DNA from: Bacteroidales bacterium
Lineage (GTDB): Bacteria > Bacteroidota > Bacteroidia > Bacteroidales > PUMT01
Direction of reading: 5' to 3'
DNA length: 64,000 nucleotides
Assembly: GCA_007123885.1 (NCBI GenBank)
Contig: SLGC01000207.1
Location: forward strand, 1,852-65,851
This document shows, piece after piece, positions 3,943-45,191 of this stretch. The translations under genes and the position numbers were made by a program. Numbering within the stretch: the first letter of the stretch is position 1; each line of letters starts with the position of its first letter. The notes beneath the pieces were generated by a model. The model saw only the letters and a list, made by a program, of their open reading frames with translations, did no database searches and had not been told where the DNA came from.

Positions 3943-4509
3943 ATGAGCTTTAATTTACAGGAATGTTATAGACAAATGAATGAGGGCGATGTGCTTCTTG
4001 CATATAAAGGGAGCATTACCACTGAATTGATAACAAATGTTCTGGAAGTAATTGAATCCAAACTGGTAGATATAAAAACAGCCTCCGCTACCAGGAAAAA
4101 GGTATATAATGTTCTCGTAGAAAGCCTGCAAAACCTTTTTCATCATATTGATGATATTCCGGAAGAGATCAAGGATGAATTTGATGCCCGGTTCGGCATC
4201 CTTGTAATAGCTTATGAAGGTGACTATTACAGGATATCGACCGGAAATTTTATCCGTTCCCAAAAGGTACCCGAACTCAGGAAGAAAATAGACAAGATCA
4301 ATACGCTCTCCAGGGAGGAGTTGAAGGAGATGTACAAGTATGTACTAAATCATCAGAAACTGACCCCAAAGGGAGGTGGCGGACTGGGATTAATTGATAT
4401 TGCAAAAAAAACCGGGAATAAAATTAGATACAGGTTCAATCCATATAACGAAGAATATTATTTTTTCAATATGAACGTATTTGTAACCGTGGAGAAAAGA
4501 TCCCGGTAG
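3943..4509 (+). CDS. SiaB-family protein kinase-like protein (histidine-kinase-like ATPase fold)
   Basis: 188-aa ORF with a glycine-rich ATP-lid-like motif (KGGGGLGLIDIAKKTG). Its size and its position directly upstream of a DUF1987 gene match SiaB/SiaC pairs. Confidence 0.65.
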   Translation: MSFNLQECYRQMNEGDVLLAYKGSITTELITNVLEVIESKLVDIKTASATRKKVYNVLVESLQNLFHHIDDIPEEIKDEFDARFGILVIAYEGDYYRISTGNFIRSQKVPELRKKIDKINTLSREELKEMYKYVLNHQKLTPKGGGGLGLIDIAKKTGNKIRYRFNPYNEEYYFFNMNVFVTVEKRSR

Positions 4510-6633: not shown

Positions 6634-6980
6634 CTGTACCTCAAATATGGCAAATGGCAGGAGGATGCAGAAACTTTTTAAGCCTGACGACAAAATGACA
6701 CCATGATTTGCTTGCAACTGACAAAAAGGCATATATTTATTATTTCAACCATTTGGCAGCTCTTTTGTTGAATGAAGAGTCTGTATCAGAGAAAAATTAC
6801 ATGAGTCCGTTCTCCAGAGTTTGAAGGCTGGAAGTATGAAAGTGGAGTTACTGGAATTATATACGACAGAACAAACCTGGAGGTTTACCTTGAAACCGGA
6901 TAGCGGAACCAGGGTTTAAAAAGGTTTCAGATTAAAGTTGTTACTGTCTTGAAAAAAACAGCATAATAAATCATACGGAT

Positions 6981-9575
6981 ATGAATCTGAATAATTTTAC
7001 CATAAAATCGCAGGAAGTAATTCATCAGGCTTTTTCTATTGCAGCCGGATACGGGCACCAGGGAGTTGAAACCGGTCATATAATGAAGTCTCTGCTGAAT
7101 GTGGATGAGCATGTTACAGGATTTATACTGAAAAAGCTTAACGTTAATACACAAAATCTTGCCAGGGTTCTGGACAGTATAATAGAGTCCTATCCAAAAG
7201 TCTCGGGCGGAAGCCAGTATCTTTCCTCCTCGGCCTCTGCTGCCTTGCAAAAAGCACTGGAAAGTTCCAAAGATGCAGGTGATGAATTTGTCTCCATCGA
7301 GCACCTGCTGATGGGTCTGTTTATGACGGGCGACCAGGTTTCGCAAATGCTCAAGGACAGTGGAGTAACATCAACAGATCTGAAAAAAGCTATATCTGAA
7401 TTGCGGAAAGGAGCTAAAGTAACCAGCCAGTCAGCCGAAGATACCCTTGATGCACTCAACAGGTTTGCCATCAATCTGAATGAAATGGCCCGTGAAGGTA
7501 AATTGGATCCGGTAATCGGCAGAGATGATGAGATCAGGCGTATCCTGCAGATACTGTCGCGGCGGACCAAAAATAATCCGATACTCATAGGTGAGCCTGG
7601 TGTAGGCAAAACTGCCATTGCAGAAGGACTTGCCCAGCGGATTGTCAATGGCGATGTTCCTGATAACCTGAAATCGAAGCAGGTCTTCTCATTGGATATG
7701 GGAGCACTGATTGCAGGTGCAAAGTACAAGGGGGAATTTGAAGAACGCCTGAAGGCTGTGGTAAGAGAGGTGGTTAATTCTCGGGGCGAGATAGTGATGT
7801 TCATCGATGAGATACATACCCTGGTGGGAGCAGGAAAAAGCGAAGGAGCAATGGATGCCGCAAATATCCTGAAGCCTGCCCTTGCCCGTGGCGAATTAAG
7901 GGCTATCGGGGCAACAACCCTTAACGAATACCAGAAGTATTTTGAGAAAGACAAGGCACTGGAACGAAGATTCCAGATAGTAATGGTTGACGAACCGGAT
8001 GTAATGAGCGGGATATCCATTCTCAGGGGACTTAAGGAACGGTATGAGACTCATCACAAGGTAAGGATAAAGGATGATGCAATTATTGCTGCCGTGGAGC
8101 TTTCAAACCGTTATATAACCGAGCGGCACTTGCCCGATAAGGCAATAGATCTTATTGATGAGGCCGCTTCCAAGCTGAGGCTGGAAATGAACTCTGTTCC
8201 CGAAAGCATAGATGAAATTGAGAGAAAGATCAAGCAGCTGGAAATTGAGCGTGAGGCCATAAAAAGGGAAGGAGACAGGAAAAAGGAAGGTGAATTGTCT
8301 GAAGAACTTGCCAATCTTAACGAGGAAAAGAACGGGCTCAGGGCAAGATGGGACAATGAACGGAATATTATCAGCAGGATACAGAAACACAAGGAGTCTA
8401 TAGAAAACATGAAACTCGAAGCCGGGCAGGCTGAAAGACAGGGTGATTACGGCAAGGTGGCCGAGTTGCGATACGGAAGGATAAAAGAAGCTGAATCTGA
8501 AATCCAGGAACTCCAGCAGGAACTCGATAATGTAAAGGTGAAGGGAGAGGGGTCCATGATCCGGGAGGAAATAGATTCGGAAGATATAGCCGAAATTGTA
8601 TCGCGGTGGACCGGCATACCGGTCAGCAGGATGCTTCAGAGCGAACGGGACAAGCTGCTCTCACTGGAGGCTGAGCTTCACAAACGGGTTGTCGGACAGG
8701 ATGAAGCATTACAGGCTGTTTCGGATGCAGTAAGGAGAAGCAGGGCAGGCCTGCAGGATGTAAAGCGTCCCATAGGATCCTTTATCTTTCTCGGGACAAC
8801 AGGAGTTGGTAAAACTGAACTTGCCAGGGCACTTGCTGAATTCCTGTTTGACGATGAAAATCTTATGACAAGGATTGACATGTCTGAATACCAGGAAAGG
8901 CATTCTGTATCGAGGCTGATAGGTGCACCCCCCGGTTATGTCGGATATGAAGAAGGGGGGCAGCTGACAGAAGCGGTAAGAAGGAAGCCCTATTCGGTCA
9001 TTCTGCTTGATGAGATCGAGAAGGCACATCCCGATGTATTCAACATACTGCTGCAGGTGCTTGATGACGGGCGGCTGACCGATAATAAGGGACGCACAGT
9101 CAACTTGCGCAATACAATTATTATAATGACTTCCAATGTGGGGTCACACATAATCCAGGACAATTTTGACAGGCTAAACGGGATGAATCGTGAACAGATG
9201 TTTGAAAAATCCAGGAAAGAGGTAATGGATCTGCTGAGGAAAACCATCAGGCCCGAGTTTTTGAACCGGATTGATGATATAATTATGTTCAAGCCACTTA
9301 CAGAGGAAGAGGTAAAACAAATCGTAAGGCTTCAGTTTGGACAGGTTAAAAAGTTGCTTGAATCAAACCAGGTCACTGTTGAAATAACAGAGCAGGCTAT
9401 TGATCTTCTGACAAAACTGGGTTTTGATCCCCAATACGGAGCCAGGCCTGTAAAAAGGATTATGCAGAAATATATGCTTAATGAATTGTCGCGAGAGATC
9501 CTGGCCGGAAAATTGGATAAGGAAAAAATTCTGAAGATTGATGCAAAAGAGGGTGAGCTGATTTTCAGTAATTAA
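6981..9575 (+). CDS. clpB: ATP-dependent chaperone ClpB
   Basis: 864 aa with a Clp N-domain, two AAA+ modules (Walker A GEPGVGKT and GTTGVGKT) and a long coiled-coil middle domain between them. Confidence 0.97.
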
Positions 9576-9616
9576 ACCGGCAGCCGGCCGGGGTGACCAG
9601 CTGGCCGTCCTCATAA

Positions 9617-9914
9617 CACGGATAGCTTGCTCCCAAAGACACGGATAGCTTCCTCCCAAAGACACGGATAGCTTGCTCCCAAAGACACGGATAGCTTCCT
9701 CCCAAAGACACGGATAGCTTGCTCCCAAAGACACGGATAGCTTGCTCCCAAAGACACGGATAGCTTGCTCCCAAAGACACGGATAGCTTCCTCCCAAAGA
9801 CACGGATAGCTTCCTCCCAAAGACACGGATAGCTTGCTCTCAAAGACACGGATAGCTTGTCCCCAAAACCCGGACAGTTTCCTCTCAAAGATGGGGATAG
9901 CTTGCCCTCAAAAA
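9617..9914. repeat. Head-to-tail tandem array of a 23-bp unit CACGGATAGCTT[G/C]CTCCCAAAGA (about 13 copies, degenerating toward 9938)
   Basis: Counted directly. Ten near-perfect units span 9617-9846 and differ at unit position 13 in the order G C G C G G G C C G (the tenth also has a C-to-T change). Three progressively decayed units follow. One decayed unit also precedes the array (about 9592-9616). Confidence 0.95.
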
Positions 9915-9931: not shown

Positions 9932-10291
9932 TCACAAACCCGGGGTACTGGTTTGTTCGATCTTCTTTTTGCACTCCTCTACTGACTCACCAAGATTGAA
10001 AACCTGGTGCAATTGAAGCAGCTTAAACAACACCATTACATCAGGCTTGATATTACAGATGAAGAGAGTGCCGTTATTGTTTCTGGCCCTTTTCATAATG
10101 GAAAGCAGGGCACCGAATCCCGAACTGTCAATAAAATTTATGTTTTTCAGATCGAGAATAAGCCTGGCCCCGGGATCATCAAAATGCCGGCCGATCTCTG
10201 ACTTAGCCTCTTCAGAATTGATGGCATTAAGTTTTCCGGGCTGGTCAAATGAGCAGATTATTACACCATCAGAAAATTCCGATTTCACCAT
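9932..10291 (-). CDS. STAS domain protein (anti-sigma-factor antagonist type)
   Basis: The DLKNINFIDSSGFGALLSI motif carries the conserved DSSG phosphorylatable serine. Taking the ATG at 10291 (MVKSEF...) gives about 119 aa. The ORF-track start at 10318 would overlap the Hpt gene. Confidence 0.8.
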   Translation of the reverse strand: MVKSEFSDGVIICSFDQPGKLNAINSEEAKSEIGRHFDDPGARLILDLKNINFIDSSGFGALLSIMKRARNNNGTLFICNIKPDVMVLFKLLQLHQVFNLGESVEECKKKIEQTSTPGL

Positions 10292-10301
10292 GATTTTCTT
10301 T

Positions 10302-10652
10302 TTACAGGGTTTTGGCAAACTGGTTTAACTCTTCCATGGCATTATTGAATTGAATTTCTATACTGCGAATGAAAGAGGGATACAATTGGGTATCTTTTTC
10401 TTCTTTGGTCAGTAATTCCAGATCTTCAAGCTCACCACACAGCTGCTTCATTCCCATTATTGAGGCAGATGCCTTGGCCTTATGGCAAAGCTTTCCCAGA
10501 GCCATCCAATTTTTAATGTTGCAATATCCATGCATCAGGTTCACATATCCCGGCACCTCTGAATTGAAGATCTCTATCATCTCCATAAGCAGGTCCTTTT
10601 TTCCACCCGAAATTTCGTTAAGATATTGAAGGTCAACGTATCTGGTTTTCAT
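10302..10652 (-). CDS. Stand-alone Hpt (histidine phosphotransfer) domain protein
   Basis: 116 aa with four-helix-bundle-like composition. The putative phospho-His motif is LGKLCHKAKASASIMG (an H-x-x-K-[GA]-S type). Confidence 0.75.
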   Translation of the reverse strand: MKTRYVDLQYLNEISGGKKDLLMEMIEIFNSEVPGYVNLMHGYCNIKNWMALGKLCHKAKASASIMGMKQLCGELEDLELLTKEEKDTQLYPSFIRSIEIQFNNAMEELNQFAKTL

Positions 10653-17175: not shown

Positions 17176-18153
17176 ATGCCAGACCTGGGAGTTAATTATC
17201 TTGGATTAAAGTTAAAGAACCCGCTTATTGCCGGTAGTTCCGGATTGACCTCAAGCATTGACCGCATCAAATTACTGGAACAGGCCGGAGCCGGTGCAGT
17301 TGTTCTGAAATCACTGTTCGAGGAACAGATAAATTACGAAGCAGGATCTATGATACAGGATCAGGATTACCCGGAAGCAGAGGATTATATTAAAAACTAC
17401 ACAAAAGCTCATTCGGTCGATAACTACCTGGATCTTATTGCCGGGGTTAAAAAAAGTGTTGATATACCTGTTATCGCAAGCATTAACTGTATTTCTGCAA
17501 GTGACTGGACCGGGTTCTCACGCATGATAGAAGAGGCCGGTGCAGACGCGCTTGAACTCAATGTATTTTTCCTGCCTGTAGACAAGCAAATACCGTCGGT
17601 CGATTATGAGAATATATATTGTGACCTGGCAACCCGGATCTGTAAAACAATACGTATACCCGTATCAGTCAAACTTGGGAGCCATTTTACCAATGTGCTT
17701 GGGGTCATTGACCGCCTTTATGCACGGGGGGTAAAGGGGGTGGTGATGTTTAACAGGTTTTATGAGCCGGATATAGATATTGACACCCTGAGACTTACTT
17801 CGGCAGATATTTTCAGTACCGCTGCCGATCTGCGCCATGTACTCCGCTGGGTTGCCCTTGTACATGATAAGATACAAAAGGTAGATATTTCTGCATCTAC
17901 CGGCGTCCACTCATGGGAGGCTGTGGTCAAGCAATTACTTGCGGGAGCTAAAACAGTGCAGGTCTGTTCCATGCTGTACAGGAAGGGAACCGGTGAAATT
18001 GGGGGACTTATCCGGGGGCTTGAGGAGTGGATGAAGAATAAGGGTTATGATTCCATTGATCAGTTCCGGGGGAAAATGAGCTACAGGAGTATCACTGATC
18101 CTGCAGCCTATGAACGGGTGCAGTTTATGAAATATTTCTCCGGCGTTGACTAG
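17176..18153 (+). CDS. Dihydroorotate dehydrogenase-like protein (PyrD-family TIM barrel, function uncertain)
   Basis: 325 aa. The N-terminus has LKNPLIAGSSGLT, and TIM-barrel FMN-binding-like segments are present. A canonical class-1 active-site loop is not evident. Confidence 0.75.
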   Translation: MPDLGVNYLGLKLKNPLIAGSSGLTSSIDRIKLLEQAGAGAVVLKSLFEEQINYEAGSMIQDQDYPEAEDYIKNYTKAHSVDNYLDLIAGVKKSVDIPVIASINCISASDWTGFSRMIEEAGADALELNVFFLPVDKQIPSVDYENIYCDLATRICKTIRIPVSVKLGSHFTNVLGVIDRLYARGVKGVVMFNRFYEPDIDIDTLRLTSADIFSTAADLRHVLRWVALVHDKIQKVDISASTGVHSWEAVVKQLLAGAKTVQVCSMLYRKGTGEIGGLIRGLEEWMKNKGYDSIDQFRGKMSYRSITDPAAYERVQFMKYFSGVD

Positions 18154-18155
18154 GA

Positions 18156-18247
18156 ATCGCTAAAATCTGACTAACCACTTTTTTGCGCACATGCCTTTTG
18201 TGCAGAGCCCCGCCAGACATTACCGCTCCTGAAAGACCCGGGTTTTT
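18156..18247 (+). repeat. Structured intergenic repeat family, copy D (full-length, immediately after a stop codon)
   Basis: It aligns almost base-for-base with the reverse complement of 34762-34878. The shared sequence is cgctaaaatc[t/g]gacta[a/t]ccacttttttgcgcacatgcc...agccccgccag(g)acatt[a/g]ccgc...cgggttt. It ends in a T5 run. Confidence 0.85.
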
Positions 18248-18266
18248 AAAACTCTTACTGCAACAG

Positions 18267-18294
18267 AGAGCCGGACCCGTGGGGATCCGGCTCT
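18267..18294 (+). terminator. GC-rich hairpin downstream of repeat copy D
   Basis: Stem agagccgga/tccggctct with a 10-nt loop. The trailing T-run is weak (tt). Confidence 0.4.
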
Positions 18295-18419
18295 TTAAGG
18301 TGCGCCGGCCATTACCGCCAATGAACTGCATTTTGGCCGTCCTGATTATTTTGGCCGGGAATTGTACCGGCAGCCATATATACTCCGGGCGGGAAATGAG
18401 CTCTGTTTTAGCCGACCGG

Positions 18420-20350: not shown

Positions 20351-20849
20351 TTATGACATTTTTGGTTAACAATTTACTTTAATATTCAAGTACTTATTTG
20401 GCTGTATTTTAGGGATAATTTATTGGAAATCGGGGTTGATGTATTAATTACATGGCCTGGTACCTACCGGTTTTATGGAATATCCTAATCAGGGGGGTAT
20501 CGGGCAGAATGAAAATAGATTTAAAGTTGTATCATTCCTGATCCTGGTTCCGGTCATGGCCTCTAAAACGGTCTGAAGTATCTTATATTGCAGTACTACA
20601 TTCAATTTATATTAAAAGAGACCAAATAAGGACATATTGTTTTACATGTTCACCTGTGAACCCCTTAACATGGACAAACAGGACTATTTACATGGTCCTC
20701 CAGCGAGTGCAAAAGAACGAAAAAAATATTACATTTACTATCCGGCACCATAAAAATGATCATCCCATAAGCCTGTTCCCATCCACCTGACGGATAAATA
20801 TTTCTGTTTATGTCCTTTTTCCCTGTCACACCCAAGGCTATCGTGCTAC

Positions 20850-21012
20850 TTTTAACCTAACTTAAAAACTGCGTCTTCCAGGCGCGGTCATGTCCTGACG
20901 GGGCTTTGCGCGAAAGCCATGTGCGATAAAAAAATTCGCGGTGCTAAGCAAAAATCGATGTTAATGCCATCTCCGGTGGTGGATAATCCGATTTTGGCGT
21001 ATTTTTTAGTTG
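20850..21012 (-). repeat. Structured intergenic repeat family, copy A (with an approximately 43-nt internal insertion)
   Basis: On the minus strand it starts about 40 nt after the uvrA stop. It contains the 5-prime module (cgccaaaatcggattatccac), an insertion, then the double-hairpin core and a T5 run. Confidence 0.85.
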
Positions 21013-25806: not shown

Positions 25807-26331
25807 ATGAGTATCATAATAGGGTGCCTGTCTGATACACACGGTCTTTACGACGAACGGCTGACTGAATTTCTGGAAACGTGTGATGAGATATGGCATG
25901 CAGGTGATATAGGAAGCTTGCAGGTGGTAAAGAGGCTCACCTCGCTTAAACCGCTGAAGGCTGTTCACGGAAATATAGATGGTAATGAGATAAGGCAATT
26001 ATTCCCGGAACATCAAAGGTTTATGTGCGAAGATGTTGACGTATGGCTGACGCATATTGGCGGTTATCCGGGGAGATATGATTTCAGGGTGAAGGGAGAA
26101 ATCAATGAGTCACCGCCGCGTCTTTTTATTTGCGGTCATTCACATATTCTCAGGATCATGAATGATGAGAAACTAGGGTTACTGCATATAAATCCCGGAG
26201 CAGCTGGAAGATCCGGTTTCCATGCAGTTCAGACAGCCGTACGGTTCACTGTCAGCGGGAGCGGGATATCGGATCTTGATGTTCTTGAACTTAAAAAGAG
26301 CCCAAATCCCGGTTCCGTCGGTATGTCCTGA
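25807..26331 (+). CDS. Metallophosphoesterase family protein (YfcE/MJ0936-like)
   Basis: 174 aa carrying the calcineurin-like motifs DTHG, GDIG, GNID and GHSH in order. Confidence 0.85.
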   Translation: MSIIIGCLSDTHGLYDERLTEFLETCDEIWHAGDIGSLQVVKRLTSLKPLKAVHGNIDGNEIRQLFPEHQRFMCEDVDVWLTHIGGYPGRYDFRVKGEINESPPRLFICGHSHILRIMNDEKLGLLHINPGAAGRSGFHAVQTAVRFTVSGSGISDLDVLELKKSPNPGSVGMS

Positions 26332-29300
26332 AGAATTGTTCCAGCTTGGTATCAGGGGCAACCATGTAGATGTATCTTTCCTGACCCCGATCCCCCCTGT
26401 CCCTTCTGTGCCTGAGAGCAATATTGTTAATTATGTTCACAAAATCCTGGTTTGATGAGAATGATTGCATTGTCCCCCTGGTATAGCCGAAATAATACCA
26501 GTTACCGTCATCCGGTTCAATATAGAGATCAATGAAATCACCCGACCGGCGCTTGGTTATTTCCAGGTATCCCGTCAACATCCTGTTTACCGGTACTCCA
26601 TTTATATAAGCCACCCCTATTTTCCCCTGTGATATATATGAGCGGCTCTCCTTGTTCCAGACAAGACTGACATCGGACAAAACAAAGGTTTTTTGCAGTT
26701 CTCCGGGAAGTTCTTCAGCCCTTTTTGCCCCGGACGACTGCCTGAAGTTATCGGCTCTCTCTTTTCCGAGCAGTTCATTGAGCCCCATCCTGTAGTACCA
26801 GGCTGCCGAGTCAACAGGCTGGCTTCCGGTGCTCCCGTCATTAAGGGTCATAAGAGCCACAGCCTCTTCAGAAAAGAAGAAATCCAGGGTTACCATTCCA
26901 TTGATGGAAGTTTCATTTTCATTTACCCTGTTTAATGCCGTACCAAAAGCCTCCATCCCGAGCTGTCCGAATGATACGCCAAGTTCAAGTTCTCCCTCTC
27001 CCTGCAGGATGCATTCTTTGGGGTCAAGGCGCAGATAATTGCCGGGCATATCGGGATTCCTGAGCTTTTCCAGTGATGCAATATGGTATTGGCCGGAATG
27101 ATGATCGTATTTCATGTAACCATCGGCCGTGACAATCGGCAGATCAGCATAATTTTTTCTTTCCGAAAAGAATGCAGGATAAATATGAACCGAATCAGTC
27201 GCTATAAAAATGCCCGGATATATCCTCGTCCGGTCTGCCGACAATGGCTGTGCGGGTACCGGAATAAGTATTTCCATGGGATCAACCGTATGCTCGAAGG
27301 CAAGCCATTGGTCATCAATCCCTTCGCAGTTATGAACTATTTTAGTTGCACCCCTGAAATTAAGATGGCTTCTTGATGCCAATAACTCAGTCTCACCGGA
27401 AAAGACAAACCAGGGACTCAGCATAAAATCATTTTCTTCTGTGCTGCCGGATGCAAATGTTTCCTTATCGCCGGTAACAGTTATATCGCTGAAAAAAATG
27501 GATTGTACATCATCCCGCTCATCGCGGTAATCATAATATCCTGACCCACTGTATTGATTGCGGTTTTTTATATTTACCACAGCATCATAGATCTCATGAG
27601 AATATCTGCCGGCACCGGCCATGATCCTTGCCTGATGCAACGGGGCGATTTCGGTGCTCTCTCCAATGACAAGCACTTCATCATTGGGAATTATCATAGC
27701 ATCGGCTATTTCCAGGTACTTCACCTGGCTTGCAGTCAGTAAATGGTTACCATAATCCAGTTTGACATGTGGTGATATAAATCTCAACGAATCCTTGTCG
27801 CTTACTGTAGAAATATATTCCGCACCCTCAAGTCCTGTTTCCGGACATAAATGTGAACAAAAAAATTCAAATTCCTTTTCGTCCATTTTCCAGGTAAAAT
27901 TTTCAGGTTCTGTCGTAAAGCCATTCATTGGCAACAAAAGGGGACTGCTATCATGGCTCCTGGTAAATTCTCCGGTTTGCTTTTCAATATCTATACTGGC
28001 AAGCAGGCTGTTTCCTGATAATGTGGCATTTCTATTCTCCGGATCATGAAAAATAAGCCTGCTGCGGGATGTTGTAAATGATTCTGCCCCGAATGAGTAT
28101 TTTTCGGCTGTGAATTCAGCATTATCGATCCTAAGTGACCCTGAACCCGCAAGTCCCGATGGGGATATCTCCAGTGAACCTGCCAGGTAAGCCTTGTTTT
28201 CAAACAAACTGAAAGGCTCGTCACCCTGCTGCACCATCATCAGATCTTTTTCAGGAACCCATCTGACAGGATTGCCGCGGGATCTTACTGCCGGGAATTC
28301 GCTCCTGCCTCTTGATTTCTCAATTAAAAAATCATTTGTTACGGCAACCAGGGAATCAGGTAAGAATAGAAAATTTTCTGAAAACAGGGATGATGACAGG
28401 TAATCAAGTCTGCCATTCCCCCGCAGACCGCTATTATCCAGCAGTATATCTTCAAACCAGGTTCCTTTGCCACCATATACAGGCAGTCCCCCGGACGCTG
28501 CATGTCTTATGCCCAGCGAAAAATCTTCCTGTAATATAAGCTTTTCCCCGATATCAGAGAAAATTCCTGCCGAGACCAGTTTGCCGTCGAAACTCAGATC
28601 ATCGTTCCTGAAAGAGCTAAGGCTGTCCAGTACGAATGGATAAAGTTCAAAAAAGAAATCCTCCTGGCCATATACACCACCCTGAATTTCCCTGTTGTCA
28701 TAAAAGACATAGGAGTTGGTCGAGCTGCTGAATTTGGGATAATCGGGGTGATCAATCCTTCCGGATTTATTAAAAGGCTTATCAACATAAAGCTCTCCGG
28801 TAACATTCCTGATAAGGTTCCTCACGCCGGCCAGTCTGGCTCTGCCGTATATATCGGTAGCTTCAAGAGGCACCCTCATGCTTATTGAATCAACATCATT
28901 GAGGCTTATCCTGTAATCGTCATAATCAAAGGAAAAAGTGGTTCCGAAAAAACTGAGGTTGCCTGCATTGATGTTCCCGTCAAACTGGAAATTCCTGTTT
29001 TTTTTCAATGTCACGGTATTGTTCACGGGAAAAATATTTACATTTTGAGTGTTGCTGATGATCACCTGTGGTATACCGTTGATCTTTACATCGTGGGTTT
29101 CAAGGCTAAGGATCGCATTTTCAAGAGGTGACTGCACCGTTGATGAAAAGTCAATAATATCATAATCGATACTTCTTATATTAGCCTGCAGGTAATCAAA
29201 CATCTTGTCCCTTACGCGGATCAGGTCTGTGCCGGTATCATAAAAAATAAATCCTTCCAGGGTCAGTTCCAGTAACTGATGACGCACTCTTGGAAGCGGC

Positions 29301-30733
29301 CTTCTGAGGTATCTTGCATATGCATTTGCCGGAAATTCGCCTGAGCCATATTCATTGGAAAAATTCCTAAGTGCAAGAAGCGGATGAACATCATCCATCC
29401 CTTGAAGCTGCCGGTAATGAATACGATCAAAAAAGCTGAATGATTTAAAGTTGGCACTGCCCTGTGAACTTGCCCTTGGCATGGTGAACCGCATTTCCGG
29501 ATCATCTATTTTCCAAAGCAGCTGAGCAAAACTCATGTCAACCTGATGGAACTGGTTATACCAGGGACTCTGGGACATGATCCTTTCATTCCGGCTAAGG
29601 GATAATTCCCGGGATCTTTCAATGTAGTTAAGCTGCAGGTCGGGATGAAAAACCATCTCATCTTCCAGGTGAAGAATTATACTGGCGCTAACAGAACTTG
29701 CTCCCTGGGAATTAAAGACAAAATGGTCTGAGCTTGCCGTAAGTAATTTTTCATTATCCCTGTAAAAAATCAGCGATGCTTCACCATTTTCTCCCCCCGA
29801 GCCGATGAGCCTGGCTCCCTGCATACTCAATCCGCCTTCATAATCAATATTCCGGTATATCCCCCTGATATTGAAATCCTGTCCATAGGATCTGAACCTG
29901 GGGTAACCGGCAGCGGAATTATTACCGGAAGTCATAACCCTGTCAGTTAATCTGCCTGCTATCGGAGTATTAAAATAAGGGCTGAAGTGGAAAAGAACTG
30001 AATCTGCATGATATTCAGATCTGCCCAGTTCTATTTCATAGTTATCGAGTATGGCGTATGCTTCAGTTTCATCGAGCCCGGTCCGTTCCCACGTTACCCT
30101 TCCACCCTTTCCCATCCAGGTCCGGCTCAGTGGGTAGAGCACTCCGGCCGTGGTGAAGATGGTAAGTGTATCGATATGGTTGAATCCTTTAAGAATGGTT
30201 TCCGGGAAGACGATCTGCAGGGAATCATTAAAAACAAGTGAGAAATCCGGAACAGATGATTTCCAGCTTATTGCGTCTGATTTGTAAAGTGTATTGTCAG
30301 AAATCAATCCGTTTATAAACAGCATCAGATCATTGATCCTCCGCAAGGAAAGATTCTGGTTCTCCAGCAGGTCTGGAAATGCCCCCTGCCAGACCCGGTA
30401 ATGCCGGCGGTCATGGTCGCTTTCTGCGAAGGTGGTAAGCATCTCCATATAGTTAAGCATATGTGGAACCGGCCGGGCATTGCGCTCATGAAGAAGATTG
30501 GCGGTATGGATTATGGTCAGCATCTCACCTGCACTGAACGCATCGGCATCCCATTGGCCGGTGAATCCGGTAAGTTTTTCAAACTGTTTTTCAGTCAGGT
30601 TGCTGCCCATAAAATCAGAAATTTCATTTACAAACAGCATTGGATCACCTGAAAATCTGTTGGTGGAGGGAAAGGTGTTTTGTAGTGAAAGTATTATTGC
30701 TGAAAATAAGATTAAGGGTAGATGTTTTTGCAT
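26291..30733 (-). CDS. Very large uncharacterised protein (about 1480 aa) with an N-terminal signal/anchor
   Basis: A long uninterrupted ORF. The likely start, MQKHLPLILFSAIILSL at 30733, avoids overlap with prmA. I recognise no catalytic motif, and the C-terminal tail is basic. Confidence 0.75.
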   Translation of the reverse strand: MQKHLPLILFSAIILSLQNTFPSTNRFSGDPMLFVNEISDFMGSNLTEKQFEKLTGFTGQWDADAFSAGEMLTIIHTANLLHERNARPVPHMLNYMEMLTTFAESDHDRRHYRVWQGAFPDLLENQNLSLRRINDLMLFINGLISDNTLYKSDAISWKSSVPDFSLVFNDSLQIVFPETILKGFNHIDTLTIFTTAGVLYPLSRTWMGKGGRVTWERTGLDETEAYAILDNYEIELGRSEYHADSVLFHFSPYFNTPIAGRLTDRVMTSGNNSAAGYPRFRSYGQDFNIRGIYRNIDYEGGLSMQGARLIGSGGENGEASLIFYRDNEKLLTASSDHFVFNSQGASSVSASIILHLEDEMVFHPDLQLNYIERSRELSLSRNERIMSQSPWYNQFHQVDMSFAQLLWKIDDPEMRFTMPRASSQGSANFKSFSFFDRIHYRQLQGMDDVHPLLALRNFSNEYGSGEFPANAYARYLRRPLPRVRHQLLELTLEGFIFYDTGTDLIRVRDKMFDYLQANIRSIDYDIIDFSSTVQSPLENAILSLETHDVKINGIPQVIISNTQNVNIFPVNNTVTLKKNRNFQFDGNINAGNLSFFGTTFSFDYDDYRISLNDVDSISMRVPLEATDIYGRARLAGVRNLIRNVTGELYVDKPFNKSGRIDHPDYPKFSSSTNSYVFYDNREIQGGVYGQEDFFFELYPFVLDSLSSFRNDDLSFDGKLVSAGIFSDIGEKLILQEDFSLGIRHAASGGLPVYGGKGTWFEDILLDNSGLRGNGRLDYLSSSLFSENFLFLPDSLVAVTNDFLIEKSRGRSEFPAVRSRGNPVRWVPEKDLMMVQQGDEPFSLFENKAYLAGSLEISPSGLAGSGSLRIDNAEFTAEKYSFGAESFTTSRSRLIFHDPENRNATLSGNSLLASIDIEKQTGEFTRSHDSSPLLLPMNGFTTEPENFTWKMDEKEFEFFCSHLCPETGLEGAEYISTVSDKDSLRFISPHVKLDYGNHLLTASQVKYLEIADAMIIPNDEVLVIGESTEIAPLHQARIMAGAGRYSHEIYDAVVNIKNRNQYSGSGYYDYRDERDDVQSIFFSDITVTGDKETFASGSTEENDFMLSPWFVFSGETELLASRSHLNFRGATKIVHNCEGIDDQWLAFEHTVDPMEILIPVPAQPLSADRTRIYPGIFIATDSVHIYPAFFSERKNYADLPIVTADGYMKYDHHSGQYHIASLEKLRNPDMPGNYLRLDPKECILQGEGELELGVSFGQLGMEAFGTALNRVNENETSINGMVTLDFFFSEEAVALMTLNDGSTGSQPVDSAAWYYRMGLNELLGKERADNFRQSSGAKRAEELPGELQKTFVLSDVSLVWNKESRSYISQGKIGVAYINGVPVNRMLTGYLEITKRRSGDFIDLYIEPDDGNWYYFGYTRGTMQSFSSNQDFVNIINNIALRHRRDRGDRGQERYIYMVAPDTKLEQFFRTYRRNRDLGSF

Positions 30734-30749
30734 AAGCAGATGTTTGACG

Positions 30750-31607
30750 TTATTCTGGTTTTGTAAAAACAATCATCAGCCATTCCCTTTTTTGTGAAAT
30801 CTCTATTGGATCAAACCCCGTTTTGGTGGCCTCATTCATAATCACGGAAAAATCTTTTTCAATAATTCCACTTATTACCAGAGTTCCTCCGTGTTTCAAT
30901 ACCCTGAAATAAACCGGTATATGATCAATCAGCACCGATCTGTTAATATTTGCAAGGATCATATCCGGTTCCCTGTTTTCAAGCAGCTCACAGCCGCCCA
31001 GGTAAACTTTTATATCATCTGTATCATTTTTTTTGACATTTTCACGTGCACTGGTAACGGCATCAGCGTCAATATCGGCCATTTCAACTTTTGCGGCACC
31101 TGCTTTACGGGCAATGATCCCGAGAATACCTGATCCGCAGCCCATATCGAACAGGAAGATCCCTTCAGGCTGACTACCAAGGATATATTCTGCGATCATT
31201 TCAGTGGTAGGATGATGGCCGGTTCCAAATGCCATTTTGGGTTCAATGATTATATCAAAGGGATATTCCTTGACAGGTGGATGAAATGGTGCCCTTACCA
31301 GGCATCTATTTGATATTGTCACAGGTGGAAAATTTTTTTCCCACTCTTCATTCCAGTTCCTGTTTTCCAGCGTGGTGTACTGATATTTTATCTTCTTTTC
31401 CCTGAAAATATCCAGTTCATCAAGCATCGCAGGAGAAAAAGAATCTTCTGAAATATAGGCAAACAAATGCTGATCCTCTTCCCAGAATCCTTCGAACCCG
31501 ATATCCATTAATACGGCTGTCACTATTGAGGAAACAGGGGATTCCTCTCCACCTGTAATACATTTTAGTTCGATAAAACCTGGTTTATTTTTGGTAGTGG
31601 CTGACAT
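30750..31607 (-). CDS. prmA: Ribosomal protein L11 methyltransferase PrmA
   Basis: 285 aa with FGTGHHPTT and the SAM motif DMGCGSGILG. Confidence 0.9.
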   Translation of the reverse strand: MSATTKNKPGFIELKCITGGEESPVSSIVTAVLMDIGFEGFWEEDQHLFAYISEDSFSPAMLDELDIFREKKIKYQYTTLENRNWNEEWEKNFPPVTISNRCLVRAPFHPPVKEYPFDIIIEPKMAFGTGHHPTTEMIAEYILGSQPEGIFLFDMGCGSGILGIIARKAGAAKVEMADIDADAVTSARENVKKNDTDDIKVYLGGCELLENREPDMILANINRSVLIDHIPVYFRVLKHGGTLVISGIIEKDFSVIMNEATKTGFDPIEISQKREWLMIVFTKPE

Positions 31608-31661
31608 ACTGAATATTTTGATTTAATGCAGGCCGTTTCGGGTAAAGCAGATATTGTAAAA

Positions 31662-31732
31662 TAAAAAAACGCCTCCGTTCATCCGGAGACGTTTACCAGC
31701 GTATAACTCCGGATATTTTGGAGTTATACGCT
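31662..31732 (-). terminator. Tandem hairpins downstream of tpiA (13-bp perfect stem, then hairpin plus T7)
   Basis: Read on the minus strand, agcgtataactcc/ggagttatacgct (31698-31732) comes first. It is followed by aaacgtctccg/cggaggcgttt and ttttttt (31662-31694). Confidence 0.65.
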
Positions 31733-34761: not shown

Positions 34762-34878
34762 ATTTAGTTTAATTTGTAAACCCGCGTCCGCTGGTCGCGG
34801 CAATGTCCTGGCGGGGCTTTACCCGAAAGGCATGTGCGCAAAAAAGTGGATAGTCCGATTTTAGCGAATTTTTTACTT
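34762..34878 (-). repeat. Structured intergenic repeat family, copy B (orphan copy in the tmk/folP divergent region)
   Basis: Full-length copy with the 5-prime module, the double-hairpin core and gggttt. No same-strand gene ends upstream of it. Confidence 0.85.
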
Positions 34879-45092: not shown

Positions 45093-45176
45093 AATTTAGT
45101 TTAAATTAAAAACCCGCGTCTTTTAGGCGCGGTAATGCCTTGGCGGGGGCTTTGCCCGAAAGGCATGTATTTTAGA
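45093..45176 (-). repeat. Structured intergenic repeat family, copy C (core only)
   Basis: On the minus strand it starts about 17 nt after the ftsE stop. It has the double-hairpin core (atgcctt...aaggcat; ccgcg..cgcgg) followed by gttttt, and it lacks the 5-prime module. Confidence 0.85.
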
Positions 45177-45191
45177 TGAAATAAATCCAGG

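Follow-up and report, generated by a model that had tools for sequence, protein, structure and literature searches.

In the stretch of 64,000 nt of Bacteroidales DNA analysed here (the window), four intergenic segments were found to be copies of a single repeat. We put at roughly 60% the probability that these segments represent a non-coding, non-autonomous interspersed repeat of ~164 nt, which has colonised the intergenic DNA of an uncultured Bacteroidales/Bacteroidetes clade. The repeat is most likely a small parasitic mobile element carrying terminator-like hairpins. The family is neither gene-specific nor tied to the genes' own strand, and it is apparently undescribed so far, although the class to which it belongs, the interspersed structured repeats of bacteria, is familiar.

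A sequence-only reading of the window had taken the look-alike segments for repeat copies, and this was borne out by an nhmmer profile of the core, which gave exactly four significant matches in the window (E from 9e-24 to 4e-22), the next-best match having an E-value of 0.64. Repeat detection in the window paired positions 18157-18216 with 34808-34867 (90% over 60 nt) and 18208-18249 with 45106-45147 (83%), and it grouped 20849-20903, 34762-34816 and 45094-45148 as a family of direct repeats. No tRNA was detected in the window by ARAGORN.

Copy A (20851-21010, minus strand) is the sole full-length copy in the window, comprising ~160 nt with both the 5' extended hairpin and the 3' module. It matched nhmmer model positions 1-159 with an E-value of 6e-41 and scored 78.9 bits in cmsearch, a score that is partly high by construction, given that copy A is among the 20 training sequences of the covariance model. 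The distance from the uvrA stop (21049) to this copy is 38 nt, and the hflK start (20350) follows ~500 nt beyond it. Copy B (34763-34877, minus strand), recognised from the sequence, repeat detection and nhmmer, scored 94.1 bits in cmsearch. Both of its termini are intact (AGTAAAAAATT.. and ..AAACTAAA), and it is located between the divergent start codons of folP (34896, plus strand) and tmk (34633, minus strand), as assigned with Pfam. Copy C (45095-45187, minus strand), recognised from the sequence and from profile matches and scoring 86.4 bits in cmsearch, consists of the 3' module only, with a CTAAAA stub before it at 45175-45170 and no 5' module. It is flanked by two convergent stops, that of ftsE (45192), which it follows by ~5-17 nt, and that of a GNAT-like gene (45067).

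Copy D (18151-18258, plus strand), identified by nhmmer, by cmsearch (49.5 bits, E = 2.5e-10), by reading of the sequence and by its fold, begins at the AG of the TAG stop (18151-18153) of a DHO_dh-like gene (17176-18153), and it faces hflC. The placing of copies D, A and C relative to the DHOD-like, uvrA and ftsE stops in the sequence-only reading was correct, D adjoining the TAG itself. Copy D is internally deleted and decayed: a 5' stub, (AG)GAATCGCTAAAATCTGACTAACCAC, is fused to T6 and followed by the 3' module, in which the terminator-like hairpin P6 is degraded to CCG...CGG only. Copies B and D exhibit an identical internal deletion junction, ..CCAC^TTTTTTGCGCACATG.. (the caret marks the boundary, here and below), with ~46 nt of the hairpin interior gone. 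As this junction is common to both, the defective variant must itself have been copied to a second place. An isolated exact 13-mer, TTTCGGGTAAAGC, is also present in the prmA-tpiA spacer (31636-31648, plus strand). The sequence-only reading had given an identical 13-nt fragment there at 31626-31648; the exact match is real, but it is not a recognisable copy and was rejected as such, its profile E-value being only 4.8, and it is either a chance match or a relic beyond recognition.

With regard to the unit itself, some 60 copies drawn from at least 17 other species-level MAGs gave a true length of ~164 nt, organised in two modules, with the consensus (alignment A1) AGTAAAAAATTCGCTAAAATCGGACTATCCACCACCAAAGGAGGTGGCTTTAACCCCGATTTTTGCTTCGCACCGCGAATTTTTT-AATCGCACATGCCTTTCGGGCAAAGCCCCGCCAGGACATTACCGCGCCTAAAAGACGCGGGTTTTTAAGATAAACTAAA. 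The 5' module is one extended hairpin of ~86 nt, flanked by A6 and T6 and comprising three helices: P1 (AAAAAATTCGC/GCGAATTTTTT), P2 (AAAATCGG/CCGATTTT) and P3 (CCACC(A)CC/GG(A)GGTGG). Comparison of upstream flanks showed that this conserved stretch of ~86 nt precedes the core in most genomes, and the apparent 52-nt insertion in copy A is the normal state of the family. The 3' module comprises a near-invariant 34-nt core, the covarying CCGCG...CGCGG hairpin (P6), a T-run and a conserved tail, AAGATAAACTAAA. Per-column identity in the core (positions 5-36) is 80-99%, and the P6 stem varies with compensation. The three-part consensus proposed earlier is present as described; its "5-prime module" and "T6" also exist, but they are the outer ends of the single ~86-nt hairpin and not separate parts.

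The family was observed in full-length, internally deleted, 5'-less and head-to-tail tandem forms. Several copies that seem to be 3'-only (window copy C, L041 and L061) keep the 5' terminal CTAAA(A), and they are therefore internal deletions and not 5' truncations. The most conserved part of the unit, the core, is internal. Transposon ends are not usually built this way, and such a core would also agree with a binding site selected by the host or with the seed of a small RNA. A small protein was considered and rejected: a conserved ATG opens a frame of 19 codons, in which 16 copies stop at codon 4 or 10, and the indels are not multiples of three.

The helices were written by hand on a MAFFT alignment of 27 full-length copies, RNAalifold having given almost no structure. 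Across these 27 copies, 87% of cells fall in standard pairs, compared with 35-51% when the partners are slid by 1-3 columns. Compensatory double changes are found in P1 (C-G to U-A), P2 (U-A to C-G), P3 (C-G to U-A) and P6 (G-C to A-U and C-G to U-A). In a 53-copy alignment of the 3' module, which was fitted to the covariance model and thus leans towards structure, 88.9% of cells are paired (28-49% when slid), and double changes occur at 9 of the 17 pairs, a level reached by none of 500 shuffles. In the core, which shows hardly any variation, both CGGG/CCCG and CTTT/AAAG pairings are possible. In each of the helices, G:U mismatches are about as common as A:C mismatches, with 13 versus 10 in P1, 11 versus 11 in P2 and 16 versus 17 in the core of the 3' module. 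As a consequence, the covariation is not assignable to selection at the RNA level. This mismatch pattern is expected if source copies keep their palindromes and daughter copies decay by transitions.

Predicted folding gave -8.8 kcal/mol for P6, which is followed by GUUUUU, and -26.7 kcal/mol (forward) and -34.0 kcal/mol (reverse) for the 5' module, which is followed by U6 in each direction. Hairpins with T-runs are present on both strands: the forward strand carries a hairpin with T6 and then a hairpin with T5, and the reverse strand carries the long hairpin and then T6. In the predicted fold, a stable GC-rich hairpin directly precedes a U-tract, as in intrinsic terminators. A rule-based terminator scan did not flag P6, because its 9-nt loop exceeds the 8-nt limit.

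The surroundings of the copies were compared with orthologous sites in relatives. In L095, L096 and L097, whose HflK is 88-92% identical, the uvrA-hflK-hflC-DHOdh order is kept and no copy is present at site A or D; the DHOdh-hflC spacers of these relatives contain ordinary bidirectional terminators. In the window, a native intrinsic-terminator hairpin (AGAGAGCCGGACCC..GGGATCCGGCTCTTT; ~-26 kcal/mol) is found outside the repeat at 18264-18297 on the plus strand. It is homologous to that of L095 at the orthologous, repeat-free locus, and copy D sits between the stop codon of the DHO_dh-like gene and this hairpin. At site C, the relative L107 (FtsE 82% identical) has 3 nt between the convergent stops, compared with 124 nt in the window. 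In another relative, the spacer at this site is 101 nt long and gave a weak match only (14 bits, E = 0.18), which may be a relic of the repeat. In the search for an empty site B, the folP relatives were at most 72% identical.

The orthologous sites without a copy, together with the position of copy D upstream of a retained native terminator, indicate that the copies are insertions and not the genes' own terminators. Since the gene keeps a strong terminator just downstream, copy D would be a decayed copy with no likely function. This copy is present in 7 of 7 same-species assemblies, among which no insertion polymorphism was found. A filled/empty pair at nucleotide resolution was not obtained from the relatives (82-92% protein identity), whose spacers are too diverged for base-by-base alignment.

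Species-representative genomes were scanned with a degenerate 23-mer of the core. At least 87 stretches were retrieved, of which about half were chance matches in unrelated phyla, and the others proved to be genuine copies, in MAGs carrying the label Bacteroidales or Bacteroidetes. In this sampling, which was seeded on the 3' core and would miss 5'-only copies, the family is present in at least 17 other species-level MAGs, in addition to the window's own species. Judging from isolate names, most of the repeat-bearing MAGs presumably originate from Siberian soda-lake sediments. Profile searches of these loci gave at least ~55 copies, and the covariance model of the 3' half gave 53 matches in 458 kb (window and loci). 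A further seven copies came from six metagenome contigs, four of them originating in a single soda-lake sediment metagenome. The repeat recurs about once every 15-55 kb, all repeat-bearing genomes being fragmented MAGs. Many copies are located at contig ends, and a canonical copy is present in a contig that had been binned as "Caldiserica".

Mean copy identity is 0.73 within genomes versus 0.71 between genomes, and the nearest-neighbour copy lies in the same MAG for 12 of 53 copies (4.3 expected). The copies are not grouped by genome, which fits continuing production from conserved sources followed by decay. A metagenome scan for the deleted variant shared by B and D gave zero matches, in a collection that also lacks the window's own copies. 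No real copies were found in IMG/VR, PLSDB or INPHARED, and a phage or plasmid origin was rejected on these grounds. In Rfam, the window had no match at the gathering threshold, and copies A and B and the consensus-like L080 gave nothing meaningful at E <= 10; the lone sub-threshold match was GP20-a (19 bits), on the P6 hairpin. A known RNA family was thus rejected, in agreement with the earlier statement that the element is not a named RNA motif. A literature search for three 16-nt core strings found no paper containing any of them.

The sequence-only reading had described the repeats as attached to gene 3' ends, which does not hold for the family. Copy B lies between divergent starts and is one of 7 divergent-region copies. 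Among the 53 copies, for which orientation counts rest on crude longest-ORF calls, the element and its upstream ORF share a strand in 22 cases and are on opposite strands in 24 (p = 0.88). The 44 copies assigned to a region type comprise 11 in convergent, 7 in divergent and 26 in co-directional regions (p = 0.34 against 1:1:2), and within co-directional pairs the element is sense in 10 cases and antisense in 16. With 10 sense, 16 antisense and 7 divergent copies, the suggestion of a terminator module or 3'-UTR-derived small RNA on the gene's strand fails. The neighbours are unrelated housekeeping genes (uvrA, ftsE, DHO_dh-like, folP/tmk, metH, greA, cheD, pfk, SDR and M20 peptidase genes), for which reason a gene-specific cis-regulator was rejected. 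The lack of a family-wide orientation bias and the unrelated neighbours together show that the family is not attached to the genes' strands. The joint absence of orientation bias and covariation was to count against the sequence-only reading; the bias is indeed absent, but compensatory changes are present.

Among the alternatives, the one that survives best, although we regard it as unlikely, is that of a bidirectional terminator or insulator cassette, selected by the host and spreading by recombination without a dedicated transposition system. The presence of a hairpin and T-run on both strands agrees with such a role. P6 with T5 resembles a Rho-independent terminator in its GC hairpin and T-run, and the A6-hairpin-T6 arrangement is typical of bidirectional terminators. 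Moreover, 37 of 44 copies face a gene 3' end on at least one side, and many are located 0-30 nt from stop codons, several of them overlapping or abutting the stop. Nevertheless, a 164-nt unit with an invariant 34-nt core and conserved A(G/C)TAAA termini differs from ordinary terminators, and neither the core nor these termini are needed for termination. Copy D coexists with, and precedes, an intact native terminator (-26 kcal/mol) that is much stronger than its own degraded P6, copy B lies in a divergent promoter region, and at the corresponding sites the relatives make do with ordinary terminators or a spacer of 3 nt. Copies are not significantly depleted from divergent regions (7 of 44 versus 25%, p = 0.22).

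Slightly less probable still is a family of small regulatory RNAs, either derived from 3' UTRs or independent, in which the core would be a seed or protein-binding site and P6 with its U-run a terminator. A core conserved at 80-99% next to a compensated P6 stem is the pattern of a seed plus terminator, and 5'-less copies tend to occur 1-60 nt past a stop on the same strand (10 versus 5 on the opposite strand). This trend is not significant relative to full-length copies (Fisher p = 0.12), however, and the consistent co-orientation just after the upstream gene that characterises 3'-UTR-derived small RNAs was not observed, given the overall 22 versus 24 and the divergent setting of copy B. The flanks diverge at once, with no conserved promoter upstream of either module. 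The symmetry of G:U and A:C mismatches in all helices leaves no strand-specific RNA signature, and tandems, internal deletions and decayed forms are as found in junk copies. The lack of an Rfam match and the relatives' orthologous sites without copies also argue against this explanation.

The ends of the repeat are well defined. At the 5' end, 33 junctions read (A/T)AG^TAAAAAATT, with AG directly 5' of TAAAAAATT in about 26 of the 33; at the 3' end, ~40 junctions read AACTAA^A, followed by unrelated sequence. The termini are AGTAAAAAA.. and ..AACTAAA. No terminal inverted repeats are present (5' AGTAAAAAATTCG versus 3' ..GATAAACTAAA), the 5' end AGTAAAAAATTCGC being unlike TTTAGTTTATCTT, the reverse complement of the 3' end. 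At the copy junctions, no direct repeat recurs in the flanks; a TAA/TAAA duplication could hide within the conserved AGTAAA/ACTAAA ends. Head-to-tail tandems occur in L043 (= L106), L020, L065 and L084. In these, the tail of the upstream copy is ..AGTAAA rather than ..ACTAAA and runs straight into the next copy, and the junction is always AG^TAAA. The junction sequences suggest that insertion may take place at AGTAAA-like sequences, including the variant tails of existing copies. Stop-codon triplets are present at either end of the repeat, TAA on the forward strand and TAG on the reverse strand.

These ends bear on the possibility, which we consider quite improbable, that the repeat is a classical MITE, derived from a DDE insertion sequence and having terminal inverted repeats and target-site duplications, or a REP/BIME mobilised by a RAYT. 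The family shares with MITEs its small size, the absence of coding capacity, multiple copies, intergenic location, hairpin formation and presence or absence that differs between related genomes, and it likewise comprises subfamilies and internal-deletion variants. However, its ends do not form inverted repeats, and its flanks show no recurrent direct duplication. REPs are single stem-loops of 20-40 nt with a stem of 5-13 bp and a GTAG/CGTC tag; they usually form head-to-head or tail-to-tail clusters and often adjoin a RAYT gene (PMC3733652). Most of them occur downstream of genes, and Y1 transposases are believed to mobilise them (PMC3733652), features that favour a relationship.

Likewise, the present repeats are extragenic, form hairpins, lie mostly near gene ends and are modular or mosaic, with no terminal inverted repeats and no demonstrable target-site duplications. 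Their subfamilies differ by complementary stem changes, and mobilisation is presumed to involve single-stranded hairpins. In contrast to REPs, the soda-lake repeat is ~164 nt long and has five to six helices. It carries no GTAG tag, and the one CGTC that it contains is part of the P6 stem/loop, on the reverse strand, rather than standing beside a stem. Its tandems are only head-to-tail, with no head-to-head or tail-to-tail clusters. Among the genes examined beside copies in the window and the loci, no transposase or RAYT gene was found, and a transposase next to the tandem or clustered copies of L021 and L084 was rejected, as only housekeeping genes are present there. The earlier designation as REP/BIME-like thus applies in the loose sense of a dispersed, hairpin-forming, mosaic extragenic repeat, but the strict definition of a REP fails on length, tag and cluster organisation.

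The repeat can also be compared with the long-hairpin, MITE-like intergenic repeats ERIC/IRU of enterobacteria and Correia/NEMIS of Neisseria. The resemblance extends to a size of 100-170 nt, the non-coding and imperfectly palindromic character, the dispersed intergenic (often transcribed) location in either orientation, the shorter variants that arise by internal deletion at fixed points, and a capacity, predicted for the soda-lake repeat, to serve as terminators or processing sites. ERIC and Correia elements are bounded by terminal inverted repeats and a TA duplication, whereas the soda-lake repeat has no terminal inverted repeats, no demonstrable TA duplication and no sequence similarity to them. 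It is also bipartite, with a long palindrome in the 5' module only and an asymmetric core and small hairpin in the 3' module. PATEs derived from IS200/IS605 resemble the repeat in the absence of terminal inverted repeats and of demonstrable target-site duplications, the hairpins close to the two ends, a short conserved motif (here AG) immediately 5' of the left end with a similar motif at the right end (ACTAAA), and tandems that would form by insertion into the right end of a copy itself. The two hairpins of the repeat, left and right, are nevertheless unrelated in sequence (CCACC/GGTGG versus CCGCG/CGCGG), and no tnpA or tnpB was found nearby.

A SINE-like element retro-mobilised through a structured RNA, with the 3' module as recognition unit and possibly also a protein-binding small RNA, is highly improbable: ~15 of 55 copies are 3'-intact and 5'-short, as from incomplete reverse transcription, the core is the most conserved part and there are no inverted repeats or demonstrable duplications, but the copies were collected with the 3' core as seed, several of the short ones still carry the 5' terminal CTAAA(A) and point to internal deletion instead, and the G:U and A:C mismatches are symmetric.

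Returning to the small parasitic mobile element, new copies would be made by an enzyme acting in trans, with the conserved core and the A(G/C)TAAA termini as its recognition sites, plausibly in the form of folded single-stranded DNA, as in REP/RAYT or the ends of IS200/IS605. Insertion would be preferred at AGTAAA-like, A-rich sites in the proximity of stop codons. Once inserted, the element would probably serve as a bidirectional transcription terminator or insulator, and this side effect would make insertions just after stops tolerable and perhaps useful. Against mobility, the loci examined contained no transposase or other candidate mobilising gene, and no autonomous master element with the same ends.

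If this interpretation is correct, a well-defined, high-copy interspersed repeat family is added to Bacteroidota, for which few small non-autonomous elements have been described to our knowledge. The family has no bearing on any long-standing question. Its consensus and covariance model can be used for annotating further copies. Such repeats break MAG assemblies, and they can also betray mis-binned contigs. The bipartite build and the invariant internal core across at least 17 other species-level genomes, with no recognisable transposition signature, are unusual. The combination of an internal conserved core with the lack of inverted repeats and of any demonstrable target duplication would point to a separate mobilising activity, possibly an enzyme of the HUH/Y1 type that recognises hairpins. 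For the organisms that carry them, the copies may rewire termination between genes.

A local hotspot of the repeat, the ~164-nt hairpin-rich element, was found at L021, a locus from another genome, where three divergent copies lie inside 3.5 kb (4176-4339, 6854-7018 and 7535-7701), all in one orientation and alternating with murC-like, DUF2752 and response-regulator genes. These copies are older-looking, and two of the three were found by the covariance model of the 3' module, at 30-47 bits. The same model gave a weak match (14.3 bits, E = 0.18) in the same orientation at 2733-2821 of L108, which is the post-ftsE spacer of a related species and is orthologous to the site of copy C. An old insertion at that site may thus survive here as a decayed remnant. 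In the window, copy C is flanked by an inverted repeat (45191-45181 and 45090-45081; arms CCTGGATTTAT and ATAAACCAGG), which could be a leftover native hairpin with the element inserted in its loop, or the ends of another small element.

The spacer between tpiA and prmA carries two strong terminator-like hairpins, arranged back-to-back (31667-31732), which adjoin the isolated 13-mer TTTCGGGTAAAGC (31636-31648), an exact match to the repeat core. Another intergenic region, with clpB (6981-9575, +) on one side and a STAS-domain gene (9932-10318, -) on the other, contains a minisatellite (9616-9912), comprising 13 tandem copies of the 23-nt unit ACACGGATAGCTTGCTCCCAAAG with 90% matches and in perfect register. 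As spacers are absent from it, a CRISPR array was ruled out. A 1493-aa ORF (26291-30772, -) showed no Pfam match at E <= 1e-5, in a housekeeping region that is otherwise well annotated.

The Bacteroidales repeat also occurs, as a canonical copy, at positions 1-119, the extreme end, of PXBT01000109.1 (L010), a 4.6-kb contig from a MAG labelled Caldiserica; this assignment is probably a binning error. Many repeat copies are located at contig ends, which suggests that the repeat breaks assemblies.
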